Shown here: positions 3,179 through 63,676 of the stretch, piece by piece
How the letters are laid out: each line of letters starts with the position of its first letter
How positions within the stretch are numbered: position 1 is the stretch's first letter
From: Oscillospiraceae bacterium
GTDB taxonomy: Bacteria; Bacillota; Clostridia; Oscillospirales; Oscillospiraceae
Reading direction: 5' to 3'
Assembly: GCA_017410425.1 (NCBI GenBank)
Contig: JAFQQV010000060.1
Location: 921-64,920 of the forward strand
DNA: 64,000 bases
Made by a program: the position numbers and the translations under genes
Notes under the pieces: model-generated
What the model was told of the DNA's origin: nothing
The model's input: only the letters and a program-made list of their open reading frames with translations
The model's database searches: none

Positions 3179-3217
3179 AAAAGCCCTATCCAAAAGGATA
3201 GGGCTTTTCAATTTGGT
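3179..3217. repeat. ssrA-proximal copy of the 39 bp direct repeat
   Basis: Identical to 699..737. It covers the last 4 nt of tmRNA (ACCA) and the ssrA terminator. Confidence 0.9.
3182..3209 (-). terminator. ssrA rho-independent terminator
   Basis: Same hairpin as at 702-729. On the minus strand it is followed by TTTTTGATTT. Confidence 0.7.
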
Positions 3218-3562
3218 GGAGATGGGGGGAGTCGAACCCCCGTCCGAAAGCACTTTAACAGAAACTTCTCCGGGCGCAGACGGTTATTTACATTCCCTCA
3301 TCCAGGCGGGAATCGTCACCCTCAAGGAATCAGTAGCTTCATGATGCGTGGAACGCTCAAAGCTTTGCGAACTCACGTTCACCACTAATCGACGCCCCAT
3401 CCCGGGCCGTGGTACTCCCGGGTGGAACGCTCGCTATTATGCAGCGAGGAGAACAGACTTGTTGTTGTTCTTTAATTTATAAGTTTTACCCATTTTAAGG
3501 ATGTTAGGCGCATCCGCCCGCTATTCCTGCCTCCACACCCCCGTCGAAACCTTTACATCCCC
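3214..3562 (-). ncRNA. ssrA: tmRNA (transfer-messenger RNA)
   Basis: The minus strand starts GGGGATGTAAAGGTTTCGACGGGGG and ends GGGGGTTCGACTCCCCCCATCTCCACCA. The internal tag frame GGT AAA ACT TAT AAA TTA AAG AAC AAC AAC AAG TCT GTT CTC CTC GCT GCA TAA TAG gives (A)GKTYKLKNNNKSVLLAA. smpB lies upstream on the same strand. Confidence 0.93.
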
Positions 3563-57854: not shown

Positions 57855-58030
57855 TTTGAAACCCGGAGAGCATTGAAAATGCTTAGGTTTTAAGACAGTC
57901 AAAACTATAAAATTTACGCCAATACGCCACGCTTACGCCAAACGGTGCAATAGTTTGTATAACAAAAAATGCACGGAAAAGGGTGTTGCTCCAATGGCTT
58001 ATGTCGTAAGAGAGATTTATAAGCGTATAC

Positions 58031-58061
58031 AAAAAGCTGACCAACTCTGGTCAGCTTTTTT
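58031..58061. terminator. Bidirectional terminator (downstream of lysS and of the convergent CBASS-like operon)
   Basis: AAAAAgctgacca-actc-tggtcagcTTTTTT. Confidence 0.75.
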
Positions 58062-58101
58062 GCTTTTAAATTTTATTTTTTAGTGCAGATGGGATATGGT
58101 T

Positions 58102-58899
58102 TCAAGATAAAATTTCAAATCTTTTTTGAAGTTTGGCCCACTCTTTTGTTTTTTCATCATTGATTTTTTTAAAACACTTTGAATCAAGCATAATAGATGC
58201 ATAAGCGAGTGCGGTTTCGTATCTGATGAGTTCCCTGCTGATTTTTCCTATAATATGAGAAGATGAACAGTTTTTATCAGAGAGGCTTGACCATAAAGCT
58301 TTGCAGTTTTCACTGACTCTTTCTAAAGACTTCTTGAGATACAAAATATTTATAAAATCTTGTAAAGTGTGCAGTGAAATGAGAATATTTGCTATCCCTA
58401 ATAAGATCTTGTTCCCGGAGACATTATAAATTATGCATATAAGCAAAAGAAACAAAATGATACAAGAACGTATGAAACTTTTTTTACACATGAGGCTGAC
58501 TATGGACAAAGAAAAAAAGCAGTTTTCATGAAGATTTGCCAAAGCCTTTTTAGTGCTAGGGTTAATAGCATCGTTGCTAAAATAACCAATTGATTCTTCA
58601 TCAGAAAGCAGGCAGCCAAAAGAATTGTCGGCAAATGAATCTCTGCGAATATCTTCAGCACGACGATATACAAAAGTATATGCTATAGAAAGAACGATTA
58701 TTAAGATGGTGCCCAAAAGTATTGTTGGACTAAGTAATGGTCCAATTTTTCCCCAAAAAGGTTTTTCAGATAAGTTGGTACAGTCATATATTATTTGAAC
58801 AATAGACATAATTGTAGTGAAAAGTGTTATAAAGCCAATCGAGGCATTCAATTTCCCAGCGATATGAAATTGTTCACGGTGAGGAACTACACTATCCAT
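58102..58899 (-). CDS. Multi-TM putative effector (S-4TM-like, SMODS-associated)
   Basis: ORF 58102..58944. ATG 58899 (MDSVVPH) overlaps the upstream stop by 13 nt. Hydrophobic segments: SIGFITLFTTIMSIVQIIY, LLSPTILLGTILIIVLSIAYTFV, SCIILFLLLICIIY, ILLGIANILISL. The C-terminal tail is helical and soluble. Confidence 0.6.
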   Translation of the reverse strand: MDSVVPHREQFHIAGKLNASIGFITLFTTIMSIVQIIYDCTNLSEKPFWGKIGPLLSPTILLGTILIIVLSIAYTFVYRRAEDIRRDSFADNSFGCLLSDEESIGYFSNDAINPSTKKALANLHENCFFSLSIVSLMCKKSFIRSCIILFLLLICIIYNVSGNKILLGIANILISLHTLQDFINILYLKKSLERVSENCKALWSSLSDKNCSSSHIIGKISRELIRYETALAYASIMLDSKCFKKINDEKTKEWAKLQKRFEILS

Positions 58900-59573
58900 T
58901 TTCTGCGCTCCTGTCGTTTCTTGATGTTTTCGTAATATGTGCATAAAAGGTTTATAGCATCTTCTTTAAATTCCTCATAGTAAGGGGAACGTATATCTTG
59001 TATTAATTGGGTGCCGTGACAGTCTCGAAATTTTTGACCGGACCCACAAGGGCAACTACAGTGTCCCCGATATTTTTTATAGCCACTTAAAAATAACAGA
59101 AGTGTATTTAGCAAATGGTCATCATCAGTTCGATATCTTTCTTTATATGCTTCCCTTGTTCCTTTGATTCCATGTGAACGTTCTCCATAGGGAGCAATAC
59201 CATAAGTACGGTAATACTCAGCAGCATAAAGATAACTCATAAGGAGTTCATCAATAAACGCAGTAAGAGATGGCGTATGAGTTAAAAATGTTCTCAATTC
59301 ACACATGGCACCCAGACATAATTCTCCATCTACTAGAAAATGCTGAAAGCCTACGGGTATATCTTCTTTCGCAGCAAATACTTTTGGAATCTGATTAGGG
59401 AAGGCGTTGGGAACTTGTATTTCAATATTAAACTCATGATACAAAGGGACTTCATCGTAGGTTTTATTCATGACTAATATTCCCTTGAGGATATACCCAT
59501 CCTCTGTCTTTGAAATAGACAGGGATGGATATTTGGTAGACACTGCAACCACTTCTTGGTATAGGTTAATCAT
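58887..59573 (-). CDS. UBC-like (prokaryotic E2) protein with a C-terminal SEC-C zinc motif
   Basis: E2-like IQVPNAFPNQIPKVF (compare YPxxPPxv.F) followed by FQHFLVDGELCLG (compare HPN...G.ICL, candidate catalytic Cys). C-terminal CPCGSGQKFRDCHG is the SEC-C motif. Its start overlaps the cyclase stop (ATGATTAA). Confidence 0.65.
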   Translation of the reverse strand: MINLYQEVVAVSTKYPSLSISKTEDGYILKGILVMNKTYDEVPLYHEFNIEIQVPNAFPNQIPKVFAAKEDIPVGFQHFLVDGELCLGAMCELRTFLTHTPSLTAFIDELLMSYLYAAEYYRTYGIAPYGERSHGIKGTREAYKERYRTDDDHLLNTLLLFLSGYKKYRGHCSCPCGSGQKFRDCHGTQLIQDIRSPYYEEFKEDAINLLCTYYENIKKRQERRKWIV

Positions 59574-60780
59574 GATCGTACATTCTGCCCCAAGGTTTGA
59601 TTGGAGTTGTTATGGTACTCGTTGTGGTTGCACTGGGAGATAAGGGCAGTTTTTTTGTAACAAACTCAGTGCCGAAAGAACGTTGTAGCCCAGAAAGATA
59701 TTTTGCCTCGTTTATGGGGGATATATCTACCACATCGTTTTTAACAACTTCGATCCAACGGAAAAATTCTTCTGCAGTTTCATTTGTCCAAAACTCTGCA
59801 AAATTATCTTCATGGTCAACAGGGTTTTCAACCCACCACACACCATCACGCTTTTCGATTGCATTACAAGAAAGAGTTTGGTTTGGAGTACCCCCCTTCA
59901 ATAGTACAGCATAGTCACTTATACCTTGAACGACATGTGCAAGTAGGGCGTCTACACTGAGTGAGGCTGAGGCACTTACTGCAATTTTTGCAGCAAGAAC
60001 GGTTATAATGACCGACTCAGGACGTAAGTTATCTCTTCTTGATCTATGGTAATATAAATCTCTATGCCGTTTCAATAACTGCACAACACGCTGTAGGCTT
60101 GATTTTACAAGGTATGGATCTACAGATTCAACGGTGGCTGTAGCTGAAAAATGGGCACGATTGTTTTTGAAATACTTCTCTCTACGCTCGCTGTAATTAT
60201 AAGACTTGAAAGGTTTATTAATATCTTCAAACCAATCACCAAACCCTTTCGTATTGCTAGTCAGCCAAGAGTATTTCCCGTTTTCGCTTTTATCTGTAGC
60301 AGCTATTGTATTTACAGCATATTTAGTAGGTACGTCCTGTTTCATTATTCGTAAAACATGGGAAGAGCTTTCTTTGACTGAAGGCACAATGTCAAGCTTA
60401 AAGCCAATGCCATCAGAAACACCAGCATATTCTAAGGTCCAACACCGACTGTCTTCTGGTAGAAGTTTGTCCCTATAAATTGAGTTTGCTTCCAAAGCTA
60501 TGCCCACGGACTGTTTAACTTCACTTGGAAAAGTTTCATGTTTATCAACAGCAAGGGTACAAATAACATCTAAATCATAGTCGGTCTCAACGCCATTTCT
60601 CAAAGGCCGTACTACAGTGCCAGTTCTAAAGGAGCCTTGGGGGCTGAAGTCACCTTGGATTCCTCTGTCAAGTAAGTATTTCGAAATACCCATATATCTA
60701 TCAACAGCGTATGAGTACATAGTGTTGGAGATATCAAGGTTTTCTGCAAGTTTTTCTAAATCTTTTTCTTTATTTCTCAT
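59566..60780 (-). CDS. cGAS/DncV-like nucleotidyltransferase (SMODS / CD-NTase family)
   Basis: Pol-beta NTase core PQGSFRTGTVVRP..DYDLDVI, third acidic strand GFKLDIVPS, and a helical LQRVVQLLKRHRD segment as in CD-NTases. First gene of the overlapping operon. Confidence 0.75.
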   Translation of the reverse strand: MRNKEKDLEKLAENLDISNTMYSYAVDRYMGISKYLLDRGIQGDFSPQGSFRTGTVVRPLRNGVETDYDLDVICTLAVDKHETFPSEVKQSVGIALEANSIYRDKLLPEDSRCWTLEYAGVSDGIGFKLDIVPSVKESSSHVLRIMKQDVPTKYAVNTIAATDKSENGKYSWLTSNTKGFGDWFEDINKPFKSYNYSERREKYFKNNRAHFSATATVESVDPYLVKSSLQRVVQLLKRHRDLYYHRSRRDNLRPESVIITVLAAKIAVSASASLSVDALLAHVVQGISDYAVLLKGGTPNQTLSCNAIEKRDGVWWVENPVDHEDNFAEFWTNETAEEFFRWIEVVKNDVVDISPINEAKYLSGLQRSFGTEFVTKKLPLSPSATTTSTITTPIKPWGRMYDHD

Positions 60781-60805
60781 ATAAGACTCCGTTTCAAATC
60801 AAAAG

Positions 60806-60868
60806 GTCTTAGCACTCGGCACGCGCGAGTGCTAAGACTATAATAACACAAGTGTCAACACTTTTCAA
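60806..60868 (-). promoter_or_regulatory. Promoter plus a 13 bp perfect inverted repeat (operator or attenuator) upstream of the cyclase gene
   Basis: Minus strand reads TTGAAA (60868-60863), a 17 nt spacer, TATTAT (60845-60840), then the palindrome GTCTTAGCACTCG-n7-CGAGTGCTAAGAC (60838-60806) followed by CTTTTGATTT and GGAG. Confidence 0.5.
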
Positions 60869-60966
60869 GGCTAAATATATAGTGATTTCTAAAATAAATG
60901 TCACCAAATGCAACAAAATATTAATTTTCAGTGAACTTGATGAACAAATTATTAAGGAGGAACACA

Positions 60967-61818
60967 ATGAAATTCAATTACTACTACGGTGGGCAGGCGG
61001 AGATGTTTTCATTCTTCCGCGTGCCTCGAATTCTTTTCACCGCACCGGAGTTCAAAGACCTGTCCAACGATGCTAAGCTGCTCTACGGCCTGATGCTTGA
61101 CCGCATGAGCTTGTCAGCTGCCAACGGATGGTTTGACAGTCAGGGCCGGGTATATATCTACTTCACCATGAACGAGGTGATGGAGGTGCTCAGCTGCGGC
61201 CACGAAAAGGCCATCAAACTGCTTGCAGAGCTTGATACCAAGAAAGGCATCGGCTTAATCGAGCGTATAAAACAGGGTCAGGGGCGGCCTACGATCATCT
61301 ATGTAAAGCAGTTCACTGACACAAAATTACCCGACCTACCAAAACAGTCTTTGCAGAATCCTGTTTATCCGAGTTCAGTAAGGAGAGAAAGTATTTTTGC
61401 TGACTTCCCAAAAGCGGAGACTAATTATACTGATATAAATTATACTAATAATAGTTATACTTATCCATCAATCTATCCGGAGCCGGAGGCGATGGATGAG
61501 ATTGAGGAACGCATAGAGCTTGATATTTTGAAAGAAGAATATCCCTATGATGACCCTGAGAGCCTTGTTGAACTCATGGCAGAGGTTGAGCAATGCAGTA
61601 CACCCACTATCCGCATAGGGCGGCAAAGCATCCCGACACCATCAGTACAGCACCGCTTCCGGCAACTGGGGCGTGAACACATAGAGTACGTTCTGGACTC
61701 GATGCGCGACACCACAAGTAAAATTAAAAACATAAAGGCCTATCTGTTAACAGCGCTGTATAATGCGCCGATAACGATAGGCCCTTATTATTCCGCGATG
61801 GTGAGAAGCACCGCATGA
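60967..61818 (+). CDS. Replication initiator protein A (RepA_N) with a DUF6017-like C-terminus
   Basis: FFRVPRILFTAPEFKDLSNDAKLLYGLMLDRMSLSAANGWFDSQGRVYIYF.. matches the RepA_N pattern; C-terminus has IKAYLLTALYNAP. ATG 60967 follows AAGGAGG. Confidence 0.85.
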   Translation: MKFNYYYGGQAEMFSFFRVPRILFTAPEFKDLSNDAKLLYGLMLDRMSLSAANGWFDSQGRVYIYFTMNEVMEVLSCGHEKAIKLLAELDTKKGIGLIERIKQGQGRPTIIYVKQFTDTKLPDLPKQSLQNPVYPSSVRRESIFADFPKAETNYTDINYTNNSYTYPSIYPEPEAMDEIEERIELDILKEEYPYDDPESLVELMAEVEQCSTPTIRIGRQSIPTPSVQHRFRQLGREHIEYVLDSMRDTTSKIKNIKAYLLTALYNAPITIGPYYSAMVRSTA

Positions 61819-61927: not shown

Positions 61928-63034
61928 ATGGAAAAACATTTGTTGTTGGGAAATGGGATAAATATACAGTTTGGAGGTAGTGAATTTACTAGTGCGCATA
62001 TTATAAAAAGAATAAAAAATAATAGTGCTGCAAATAAATATGATAGTTTATTTGCAGATAAAATCTCAGGGACCGATATTATTTCAATTTTTGAGGGTCT
62101 TGTAGGTGTAGCTAATTCAATAATAGAAGGAAAACACAATGACAAAAGTTTTGATTTAGATACAACAGAAGCAATATGTGATTTTATGAAAAGATATACA
62201 AAAAAAGTTTCTGCGCTTCATGAAATCATGCTAGAGGACTGGCTGTTATTGCTTCATGTTTTTTTCTCCCTGAATAATGATTTGATGCCAATCTATCAAA
62301 CAGCTGTACAAGGGTTTGAACAACTTCTGTTGGACGCCATATATAACAATGGAGAAATACAAAAATTATATCTAAAGATGAACGACGAAATCAAAAATTT
62401 CTTCTTGGGTTATGAAAATATATTCACGCTTAATTATGATAACAATGTAGAAAGTCTAACAAACAGGAAAGTATACCATTTACATGGTGATTTTTCCGTT
62501 TTAGCAGATAGTGAAAATCCAGAAACAGCGCTGGGATATATCAGAACAGAAAACGGGGATACAGCTTGGATTGCGGAAATGAAACATTGTTATTGCAATG
62601 CTTTGCTAAACTATAGTGGTAGACTAAAATATAAAACTGCTATGAAAAAGTATCTGACAATCCTAGACTCGGAGACTTATCATAATAGGTACAAAAATGA
62701 TATTCTATTTAGAACCTCGCTTGAAATAAATAATTCTATAGAGGCACAGATGATACGTACAAAGATAATGCATCCAGAACTTAAAATGGCCACTGACTAT
62801 TATTTTTCAAAATTTGAGTCAATAAAAGGTGAATTAGATATAATAGGTTTATCTCCTAATAATGATCAACATATTTTCGATGGCATATTAAATAACAAGG
62901 ACCTAACAAAAGTTGTTTTTTATTACCATGACGGAAAGGAACGAGACTATATTGAAAGTCACTATCCTAATGAACTATTTGACTGCTTGAGTGTTCAAGA
63001 ACTATGGAAATCATTGAAGTGTGGCAAAGAATAA
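61928..63034 (+). CDS. AbiH-like / SIR2_2-like abortive-infection family protein
   Basis: N-terminal LLLGNGINIQFG, central IFTLNYDNNVE..VYHLHGD, and C-terminal LDIIGLSPNNDQHIF..VVFYYH match the AbiH block order. AT-rich cargo position. Confidence 0.6.
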   Translation: MEKHLLLGNGINIQFGGSEFTSAHIIKRIKNNSAANKYDSLFADKISGTDIISIFEGLVGVANSIIEGKHNDKSFDLDTTEAICDFMKRYTKKVSALHEIMLEDWLLLLHVFFSLNNDLMPIYQTAVQGFEQLLLDAIYNNGEIQKLYLKMNDEIKNFFLGYENIFTLNYDNNVESLTNRKVYHLHGDFSVLADSENPETALGYIRTENGDTAWIAEMKHCYCNALLNYSGRLKYKTAMKKYLTILDSETYHNRYKNDILFRTSLEINNSIEAQMIRTKIMHPELKMATDYYFSKFESIKGELDIIGLSPNNDQHIFDGILNNKDLTKVVFYYHDGKERDYIESHYPNELFDCLSVQELWKSLKCGKE

Positions 63035-63367: not shown

Positions 63368-63676
63368 ATGCGAAGAAGAAACCGACACATCAGTGTCTGG
63401 ATGAACGACAAAGAATATTCTAAACTCAAAAAGGAGGCCAAGGCTGCAGGTCTGGGCATTGACCCGTTTATACGCAATCTTGTAGCCGGGGTTGAAATCA
63501 AACCGAAGCCGCCGGAGGAATACGCAAAGCTTCTGCGGGAGCTATCCGCTATCGGCAACAACATAAACCAGATTGCCTATATTGCAAATTACAGAAAAGG
63601 CGTTTCCGATGCTGAGATACAGGAGGCGGCAGCTCTTACCCGACAGGCTTTTAGCTTGGTCAAAAAGTTCTTATGA
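63368..63676 (+). CDS. mobC: MobC-family mobilisation (relaxosome accessory) protein
   Basis: LLRELSAIGNNINQIAYIAN motif and an RHH-like N-terminus; 102 aa. Confidence 0.85.
   Translation: MRRRNRHISVWMNDKEYSKLKKEAKAAGLGIDPFIRNLVAGVEIKPKPPEEYAKLLRELSAIGNNINQIAYIANYRKGVSDAEIQEAAALTRQAFSLVKKFL

Follow-up and report, generated by a model that had tools for sequence, protein, structure and literature searches.

The Operon and Its Gene Order

In a 64-kb window of Oscillospiraceae bacterium DNA (contig JAFQQV010000060.1; "the window" means the whole stretch analyzed, and positions count from its first letter), three overlapping genes lie on the minus strand in the order ORF1, ORF2, ORF3 (ORF, open reading frame). 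They encode a cyclase of the cGAS/DncV-like nucleotidyltransferase (CD-NTase) family, a stand-alone E2 with a ubiquitin-conjugating (UBC) fold, and a membrane effector with four transmembrane helices (4TM), and PADLOC models for the cyclic oligonucleotide-based antiphage signaling system (CBASS) match all three proteins end to end. An earlier note on this DNA had assigned the genes to an E2-only CBASS, and the combination of CD-NTase, stand-alone E2, and 4TM effector supports that assignment. The locus very probably holds a complete E2-type (type II-short) CBASS operon for abortive infection, which is cargo of a mobilizable element inserted downstream of lysS. The parts of the operon are as follows.

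59566 to 60780, minus strand: ORF1, CdnG-like CD-NTase (cyclase), 404 residues; catalytic residues G49-S50, D69, D71, and D130
59587 to 59598, minus strand: KPWG motif of ORF1 (K395-P-W-G398), conserved in relatives
59569 to 59586, minus strand: six-residue tail RMYDHD of ORF1, after G398; its codons overlap the start of ORF2
58887 to 59573, minus strand: ORF2, stand-alone E2, 228 residues; UBC fold over residues ~1–130, then a C-terminal helical extension with SEC-C motif
59013 to 59054, minus strand: SEC-C zinc knuckle of ORF2, C174-P-C176-GSGQKFRD-C185-H186-G (Pfam PF02810, 27.2 bits)
58102 to 58899, minus strand: ORF3, 4TM membrane effector, 265 residues from ATG 58899 (longest reading 58102 to 58944, 280 residues); PADLOC CBASS "Effector 4TM" PDLC00726, 4.2e-48

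ORF1 and ORF2 overlap by 8 nucleotides (nt; ATGATTAA), the ATG of ORF2 lying inside the junction ...AAA CCT TGG GGC AGA ATG TAC GAT CAT GAT TAA, and ORF2 and ORF3 overlap by 13 nt when ORF3 starts at ATG 58899; these coordinates agree with the two overlaps reported in the earlier note. ORF3 most likely does start at 58899, because the 13-nt overlap, a GGAG Shine-Dalgarno sequence 8 nt upstream of this ATG, the public gene call (also 265 residues), and the PADLOC effector alignment, which begins at residue 16 of the long reading, all agree.

ORF1 Is a CdnG-like Cyclase

By sequence and predicted structure ORF1 is a CdnG-like CD-NTase with an intact active site, the clade G label being taken from its nearest neighbors and not from a tree. 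It matches the PADLOC cyclase model PDLC00780 at 2.6e-87, scores 28.2 bits against Pfam DncV-like_NTFase, just over the cut-off, and lies just below the cut-off for Pfam SMODS. Its sequence matches in the Protein Data Bank (PDB) are 9woo, a cyclic GMP-AMP (cGAMP) synthase (2e-26), SmCdnG from Serratia marcescens (1e-13), and BdCdnG (3e-9). When the AlphaFold2 (AF2) model (predicted local distance difference test (pLDDT) 92.6) was compared with known structures by Foldseek, the best match was 8hsb_A, which is SmCdnG from the CdnG-E2 complex (9e-16), followed by BdCdnG (7ljn, TM 0.78), and every one of the best 50 matches was a CD-NTase. The pol-beta/cGAS-type layout described in the earlier note is found in the motifs PQGSF (G49 and S50), D69-x-D71, and LDIVP (D130), and all five of these residues are invariant across 94 cyclase homologues.

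ORF2 Belongs to a Large E2 Subfamily with a Zinc Knuckle

ORF2 matches the PADLOC E2 model PDLC00871 (1.2e-48) over residues 7–219 of 228, and its E-value against Pfam Prok-E2_B is only 0.093; for the three proteins in general, Pfam matched much less strongly than PADLOC. In the AF2 model (pLDDT 96, predicted TM-score (pTM) 0.88) the N-terminal ~125–130 residues match UFC1, the Tsg101 UEV domain, and classical UBC folds with a Foldseek probability of 1.00, and residues 135–228 form extra helices surrounding the zinc knuckle. The two blocks from which the UBC fold had been recognized, P59-x3-P63-x-V-F and H78-x4-G83-x2-C86-L-G, are present as written, and a family profile compared with eukaryotic UBC proteins (E 1e-4, residues 41–89) aligns H-x4-G-x2-C-L with their active-site block. 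The knuckle likewise proved canonical, scoring 27.2 bits against a Pfam cut-off of 20.4; it aligns with the C-terminal zinc-motif peptides of SecA (1ozb, 1tm6, and 1sx0), and its CxC...CH pattern is predicted to bind zinc. The SEC-C motifs of SecA and YchJ (PF02810; 1OZB, 1TM6, and 9L6B) share the same CxCxSGxKxxxCH knuckle, whereas the host protein here is an E2 and not a translocase.

A single-sequence word-index search with ORF2 returned 3 proteins only and gave a false impression of rarity, which was corrected by a profile search. With a three-sequence profile compared against 1.84 billion cluster representatives, we obtained 2097 representatives at E ≤ 1e-3, 1369 at E ≤ 1e-10, and 230 at E ≤ 1e-30, and in almost every one of the best 150 the alignment runs through the knuckle. 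Among 153 aligned members, H78, C86, and H134 are each kept in 152 and all four zinc ligands (C174, C176, C185, and H186) in 149; the four ligands are invariant in a second family alignment of 101 sequences, and in the family alignments H78, C86, H134, and G138 vary little or not at all. The knuckle falls within six PADLOC E2 models (216–241 positions), NCBI names such proteins "SEC-C (metal-binding) domain-containing protein," the newer Pfam family E2-CBASS (PF26395) weakly matches some members, and for one member (P0243) the assembly collection has ~2000 indexed blocks. Judged by these alignments, the SEC-C knuckle marks out a large subfamily of E2 proteins, and because it is near-invariant across that whole subfamily it is no add-on; the suggestion that ORF2 carries an unusual appended tail did not hold.

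No E2-SEC-C relative was found among PDB sequences (two family profiles and one member sequence, E ≤ 10) or in the phage collection searched, and the literature searched held no report joining SEC-C with a CBASS E2. One relative (P0069, 616 residues) is a natural fusion of a cyclase (residues 1–377) to an E2-SEC-C (residues 388–600) with QPWS at the junction, and such a protein would need self-cleavage at the PW site in the manner of a ubiquitin precursor.

The Three Genes Travel as a Block without E1 or JAB

The co-conservation of the three genes was examined at related loci. A scan of genome contigs gave 2 loci only, in Muribaculaceae and Lachnoclostridium, both with the same cyclase/E2-SEC-C/4TM trio; for statistics we used a metagenome scan of 80 loci, 66 of which had enough upstream sequence to be assessed. 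A cyclase ends ≤80 nt from the E2 start in 62 of these 66; of the remaining four, none has a cyclase ORF whose end comes that close to the E2 start as called, and in at least two of them the cyclase ORF is split. More distant E2 relatives also follow a cyclase and stand before or after other CBASS effectors: for Monoglobus pectinilyticus and a very common gut contig the effector is SLATT_4, for Nitrohelix a SAVED protein, and for another genome a patatin. Among 60 non-redundant flank proteins from related loci, PADLOC recognized 18 4TM, 8 2TM/SLATT_4, 5–6 patatin, and 5 SAVED-HNH proteins, so that effectors swap modularly among the relatives. Cultured relatives include megaplasmids of Ligilactobacillus salivarius, on which the block adjoins BREX, and a Carnobacterium megaplasmid has a decayed copy whose genes NCBI names "SEC-C metal-binding domain-containing protein" and "S-4TM family putative pore-forming effector."

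Among the Pfam matches of the 60 flank proteins there was no ThiF/E1 or JAB family, and no E1 or JAB is encoded in the part of the island within the window, as the earlier note had stated. PADLOC E1-E2 models that include the E1 part match ORF2 weakly, over residues 47–88. Canonical type II CBASS (a Cap2 E1-E2 fusion with the JAB protein Cap3; Enterobacter cloacae CdnD-Cap2, PDB 7TO3) is similar in that a UBC-fold enzyme regulates a CD-NTase through its C terminus, but our operon has neither the E1 adenylation domain nor the JAB peptidase, and the 228 residues of ORF2 include no E1 part. The operon is thus an E2-only CBASS and a regular member of a known defense family.

In several independent E2-CBASS loci a protein of 440–460 residues is divergently encoded directly upstream of the cyclase (L001:34-1353(-), L016:43-1410(-), L020:1214-2557(-), and L067:1148-2524(-)); from its N terminus (MFEY.KLKNFKSFG...) we take it to be AAA-ATPase-like. 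Two further loci (L005/L006) have an AAA_21 gene and a 209-residue partner upstream of the cyclase on the same strand. The AAA-like upstream gene may be a co-traveling defense gene.

The Cyclase C Terminus and the Serratia marcescens E2

The KPWG motif of ORF1 ends six residues before the end of the protein, in a region (residues 380 to 404) that is disordered in the AF2 model, as expected for such a tail. The first seven cyclases aligned all have (K/Q)PW(G/S) followed by 1–6 variable residues, and among the 120 closest cyclase clusters [KRQ]P[WYF]x occurs within the last 16 residues in 119. The residue x after PW is Gly in 79 of these clusters, Arg in 17, Ser in 10, Lys in 6, Cys in 5, and Ala in 2, and the tail that follows PWx is 0–8 residues long, reaching ≥6 residues in 8 clusters. 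A cyclase 96% identical to ORF1 ends KPWGQNICS, with the same KPWG and another tail. Because the codons of the ORF1 tail overlap the E2 start, its sequence is partly a by-product of the gene overlap.

Arg, Lys, or Cys thus replaces Gly after (K/R)PW in about one-quarter of the cyclases paired with an E2-SEC-C, for example in those ending ...KPWRK (cyclase C termini of relatives, P0258-P0377; loci L026, L033, L035, L038-L042, L056, L062, L064, L066, L085, L086, and L088).

E2-CBASS has been dissected biochemically in one species, S. marcescens (SmCdnG-SmE2, PDB 8HSB). That operon resembles ours in its stand-alone E2 beside a CdnG-type cyclase of ~400 residues, in the absence of E1 and JAB, in a conserved Gly near the cyclase end with removable residues after it, and, probably, in a catalytic Cys flanked by conserved His, and its cyclase is, as noted, the best structural match of the ORF1 model. 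SmE2 cuts the cyclase after the conserved Gly by means of C101/H87, removing even fused MBP or GFP, and then forms first a thioester and next an isopeptide; the poly-cyclase chains built in the end activate synthesis of cGAMP. G406V and G406L substitutions in the cyclase abolish conjugation (Yan et al., 10.1101/2022.05.25.493364; PMC12948482). SmE2 is ~18 kD (construct numbering to R162) with two conserved cysteines reported and an unstructured C terminus, and two His beside the catalytic Cys (H87 and H152) are specific to E2-only systems (10.1101/2022.05.25.493364; PMC12948482). From its size and its two conserved cysteines SmE2 probably has no zinc knuckle, whereas ORF2, at 228 residues, has an extra folded helical extension of ~95 residues carrying the CCCH SEC-C. 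The two operons also differ in effector (2TM-SAVED with an exonuclease there, 4TM here) and in the length of the tail after Gly (1 residue there, 6 in ORF1).

The earlier note, reading the literal C terminus ...PWGRMYDHD as one without a small residue, had proposed an atypical E2-only variant in which this end and an appended zinc tail might imply a different priming chemistry. The apparent absence of a knuckle from SmE2, with its two conserved cysteines and ~18 kD, would fit such a variant, as would the fact that no lysine is conserved in the E2 family alignment. The premise does not stand, however: the small residue is present as G398 within the conserved KPWG, and only then comes the six-residue tail. 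Nor is the conclusion supported, because in E2-CBASS the E2 does the trimming itself, as a protease, and in S. marcescens it removes the residues after Gly before the thioester and isopeptide are made, so the RMYDHD tail is no argument for different chemistry. With tails of 0–8 residues across relatives, a 96%-identical cyclase that differs in its tail after the same KPWG, and a knuckle that is family-wide and not specific to ORF2, we consider the proposed variant very unlikely; the SEC-C extension and the tail are normal for the clade.

Proposed Mechanism

By analogy with S. marcescens, the E2 would dock on the cyclase, and Cys86/His78 would act as a cysteine protease cutting after Gly398 and releasing RMYDHD, G398 being the predicted site of both processing and conjugation. 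The E2 would then hold the cyclase as a thioester and pass it to lysines, yielding cyclase-E2 or poly-cyclase conjugates, and conjugation would raise cyclase activity during infection. The nucleotide signal is probably a cGAMP isomer, as for characterized CdnG enzymes, and it would activate the 4TM protein, permeabilizing the membrane and killing the infected cell. As for the zinc knuckle, its likeliest role is that of a structural clamp, or of an element by which the C-terminal extension of the E2 docks the cyclase or another partner, and this extension would stand in place of the short unstructured C terminus of SmE2.

Several observations weigh against carrying this mechanism over to ORF1–ORF3. 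SmE2 was undetectable by sequence from the ORF2 family (two profiles and one member against the PDB, E ≤ 10), that search giving SecA SEC-C peptides and eukaryotic UBC/UFC1 only, and on the effector side Pfam S_4TM (PF18159) gave no match to ORF3 at E ≤ 1. Because the E2 family has no conserved lysine, a self-isopeptide of the SmE2 K159 type may not apply. About one-quarter (~24%) of the related cyclases have Arg, Lys, or Cys at the Gly site, ends that are awkward for ubiquitin-like conjugation across the clade, although ORF1 itself has Gly; in S. marcescens the bulkier G406V and G406L substitutions abolish conjugation.

A direct sequence link of ORF2 to SmE2 or to Cap2 was accordingly rejected, the PDB search having given neither; SmE2 was also not among the best 50 Foldseek matches of the ORF2 model, and H78/H134 of ORF2 and H87/H152 of SmE2 share no sequence match by which they could be aligned residue for residue. 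Because there is no such match, transfer of the mechanism draws on similarity of fold and operon logic, on the His/Cys/His pattern, and on the terminal Gly.

The same lysine and Gly-site observations could be accommodated if the E2-SEC-C were mainly a C-terminal protease, a thioester carrier, or a knuckle-based sensor of a phage or ribosomal cue, and not a poly-cyclase ligase. SEC-C motifs in SecA mediate partner binding, and cyclase-E2 fusions that occur naturally would have to be cut at PW[G/S], both of which would suit such a role. The catalytic Cys of ORF2 lies in a canonical UBC context, however, and in the sole characterized E2-CBASS one E2 has both protease and ligase activities; we therefore hold this alternative to be distinctly improbable. 

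The zinc-knuckle E2 subfamily may use conjugation or processing chemistry unlike that of SmE2, because about one-quarter of its members pair with PW-Arg/Lys/Cys cyclases.

As a defense system the locus adds little, E2-CBASS being already classified, found by standard tools, and worked out biochemically for S. marcescens. The zinc-knuckle E2 subfamily is, on the other hand, very large and abundant in the gut, and because the characterized SmE2 appears to lack its extension, current mechanistic models may leave most E2-CBASS systems in nature uncovered; the cyclases of this clade that end in PW-R/K/C and not in PW-Gly put a strictly ubiquitin-like view of these systems to the test. The residual interest of the locus is in this subfamily with its non-Gly variants and, mainly, in an operator on the promoter, described below.

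The 4TM Effector

In a 19-residue Kyte-Doolittle scan ORF3 shows two pairs of hydrophobic segments, four in all, in keeping with the four or more hydrophobic helices claimed for it earlier, and is 29% identical (3e-14) to the equivalent gene on the L. salivarius megaplasmid. It falls in the PADLOC 4TM families PDLC00726 and PDLC00719, and like the CBASS effectors of these families it has four TM helices in two pairs, ~260 residues, and a position after the E2. Membership in Pfam S_4TM PF18159 was rejected: in addition to the missing profile match, ORF3 has no similarity to the Carnobacterium "S-4TM family" protein (L211:3999-4820; BLASTP E = 31). For these two reasons we place ORF3 in a separate 4TM family. 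ORF3 and the Carnobacterium effector both follow an E2-SEC-C gene, yet they show no detectable similarity, and on this comparison the clade uses at least two unrelated 4TM effector families.

A Probable CIRCE Operator on the Predicted Operon Promoter

Upstream of the cyclase we found the following features.

60840 to 60868, minus strand: sigma-70-type promoter-like site, TTGAAA, 17-nt spacer, TG-extended TATTAT, 10/12 consensus matches; predicted from the consensus match alone
60809 to 60835, palindromic: CIRCE (controlling inverted repeat of chaperone expression) element TTAGCACTC-N9-GAGTGCTAA, 0 mismatches (18/18) to the HrcA operator consensus
60806 to 60838: 13-bp hairpin with U-run, to which the self-complementary N9 spacer extends the stem

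The CIRCE/HrcA regulon comprises the groESL, dnaK, and hrcA operons of Gram-positive and other bacteria. The element in the window reads TTAGCACTC-GCGCGTGCC-GAGTGCTAA and lies between the -10 hexamer and the cyclase Shine-Dalgarno sequence; the -10 box ends 4 nt before it, and the cyclase ATG follows after 28 nt. It is the sole match in the 64 kb at ≤3 mismatches, where 0 are expected by chance. Both the consensus and the usual position of CIRCE at or near the transcription start are described (PMC1676014). The present element shares with those of chaperone operons the 18/18 match and the place just after the -10 box, whereas the genes downstream are here an immune operon and not chaperones.

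The element recurs at the same place in relatives. Searching 510 kb of CBASS loci at ≤3 mismatches gave 11 matches in 9 distinct loci and none elsewhere, against 0.2 expected from shuffled sequence. All lie 1259–1288 nt before the E2 start, that is, 20–30 nt or more before the cyclase start (positions in relatives, L007:3726, L014:2025, L015:926, L016:1498, L018:575, L020:2688, L058:2497, and L067:2697), and each stands 4–8 nt after a -35/-10 pair, the related loci having equivalent pairs with 17-nt spacers directly upstream of CIRCE. The operon of M. pectinilyticus is among those that carry it. The upstream neighbors of the nine loci differ (RepA_N, an AAA-type ATPase, an SRAP-like gene, or nothing), as do their effectors, and the identity of their E2 to ORF2 falls to ~33%; CIRCE thus moves together with the CBASS promoter. 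Its occurrence at the same place in related loci suggests, on sequence grounds, HrcA control of the operon.

The palindrome at 60806–60838 could instead be an RNA element, either a 5' stabilizing hairpin or an intrinsic attenuator or terminator. In the window it does look like one, the 13-bp stem being followed by CTTTTGATTT and scored as terminator-like. In the relatives, however, the 9-nt spacer differs in sequence and is seldom self-complementary, although the two CIRCE 9-mers and their exact 9-nt spacing are kept; a spacer that varies in this way favors an operator bound by protein over a hairpin in the RNA, and conservation of the half-sites without compensatory changes points in the same direction, as does the normal placement of CIRCE at or near the transcription start. 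A search of Rfam with the leader hairpin gave nothing relevant, the one sub-threshold match (STnc230) being at the lysS-side terminator. An RNA element is thus unlikely, and the leader hairpin as an RNA family or terminator was set aside in favor of the CIRCE reading, given the fixed-spacing sequence that relatives keep.

HrcA bound at CIRCE would probably repress transcription, and once heat or a surge of phage structural proteins had titrated GroEL, the repression would be lifted. Weighing against this, many related loci have no CIRCE, for example L001, L002, L005, and those of L. salivarius. The hrcA and groESL genes of the host are not within the window, and no report linking CIRCE or HrcA with CBASS was found in the literature searched. 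A general link between CIRCE and cyclases or defense in viral contigs was rejected, since none of 120 viral-contig loci with a perfect CIRCE had a match to the cyclase profile; the genes beside perfect CIRCE elements in viral and metagenomic contigs are, as we take them to be from their N-terminal sequences, groES, hsp20, htpG, hrcA, and clpB. We put forward only tentatively, with somewhat less than even confidence, that this E2-CBASS clade is wired into the HrcA/CIRCE circuit, off until GroEL is titrated, for instance by newly made phage capsid proteins or by heat, and that its zinc-knuckle E2 chemistry may differ from that of SmE2. The conserved heat-shock operator offers a hypothesis for how an autotoxic immune operon stays silent and is then induced, and if it is true, chaperone load would be a transcriptional infection signal tying proteostasis stress to phage immunity. 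M. pectinilyticus, which bears CIRCE, and L. salivarius, whose megaplasmid copy is CIRCE-less, are represented by isolate-derived genome or plasmid records and are possible experimental hosts.

Four CIRCE-less loci (L002, L022, L025, and L024) have another conserved palindrome, CACAAGAT(A/G)TTGTG, in the leader ~60–100 nt upstream of the cyclase start. This palindrome may be an operator for another regulator.

Genomic Setting

The operon sits between lysS (with greA) on one side and mobile-element genes on the other. The neighboring features are these.

58031 to 58060, either strand: bidirectional terminator-like hairpin, 13 bp, A/T runs on both sides, between the effector stop and the lysS stop
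60931 to 61818, plus strand: RepA_N/DUF6017 initiator, a mobile-element gene
61928 to 63034, plus strand: 368-residue protein with weak PDC-S21 matches
63368 to 63676, plus strand: NikA/MobC, a mobile-element gene

The GC fraction is 0.32–0.42 over 58000–61000 against ~0.50 in the flanking lysS/greA, and the AT-rich DNA beside mobile-element genes of which the earlier note had spoken is thus confirmed. With lysS/greA on one side and RepA_N/DUF6017, the 368-residue protein, and NikA/MobC on the other, the operon is taken to be cargo of a mobilizable element. The adjoining RepA_N and MobC genes on low-GC DNA, together with the relatives found on megaplasmids, could also mean that the module is chiefly an addiction or stabilization cassette for the mobile element and not a phage defense. 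Carriage on mobile elements is the norm for CBASS, however, and the same block is found beside BREX and other defense genes as well as in chromosomal sites without element genes, so that such a cassette seems hardly credible beside the defense function that we favor.

The gene at 61928–63034, between the RepA_N and MobC genes, was considered as the missing E1 or JAB and rejected, for it has no Pfam match and only weak PDC-S21 matches. It lies on very low-GC DNA (~0.30), and its best PADLOC match is the candidate system PDC-S21 (5.6e-7, weak); it may be a second defense cargo gene on the element. Distant from the operon, ARAGORN called a transfer-messenger RNA gene at 3214–3562 on the minus strand with the tag peptide ASVPPGSTTARDGASISGEREFAKL, which is consistent with an ordinary chromosomal context for most of the window.

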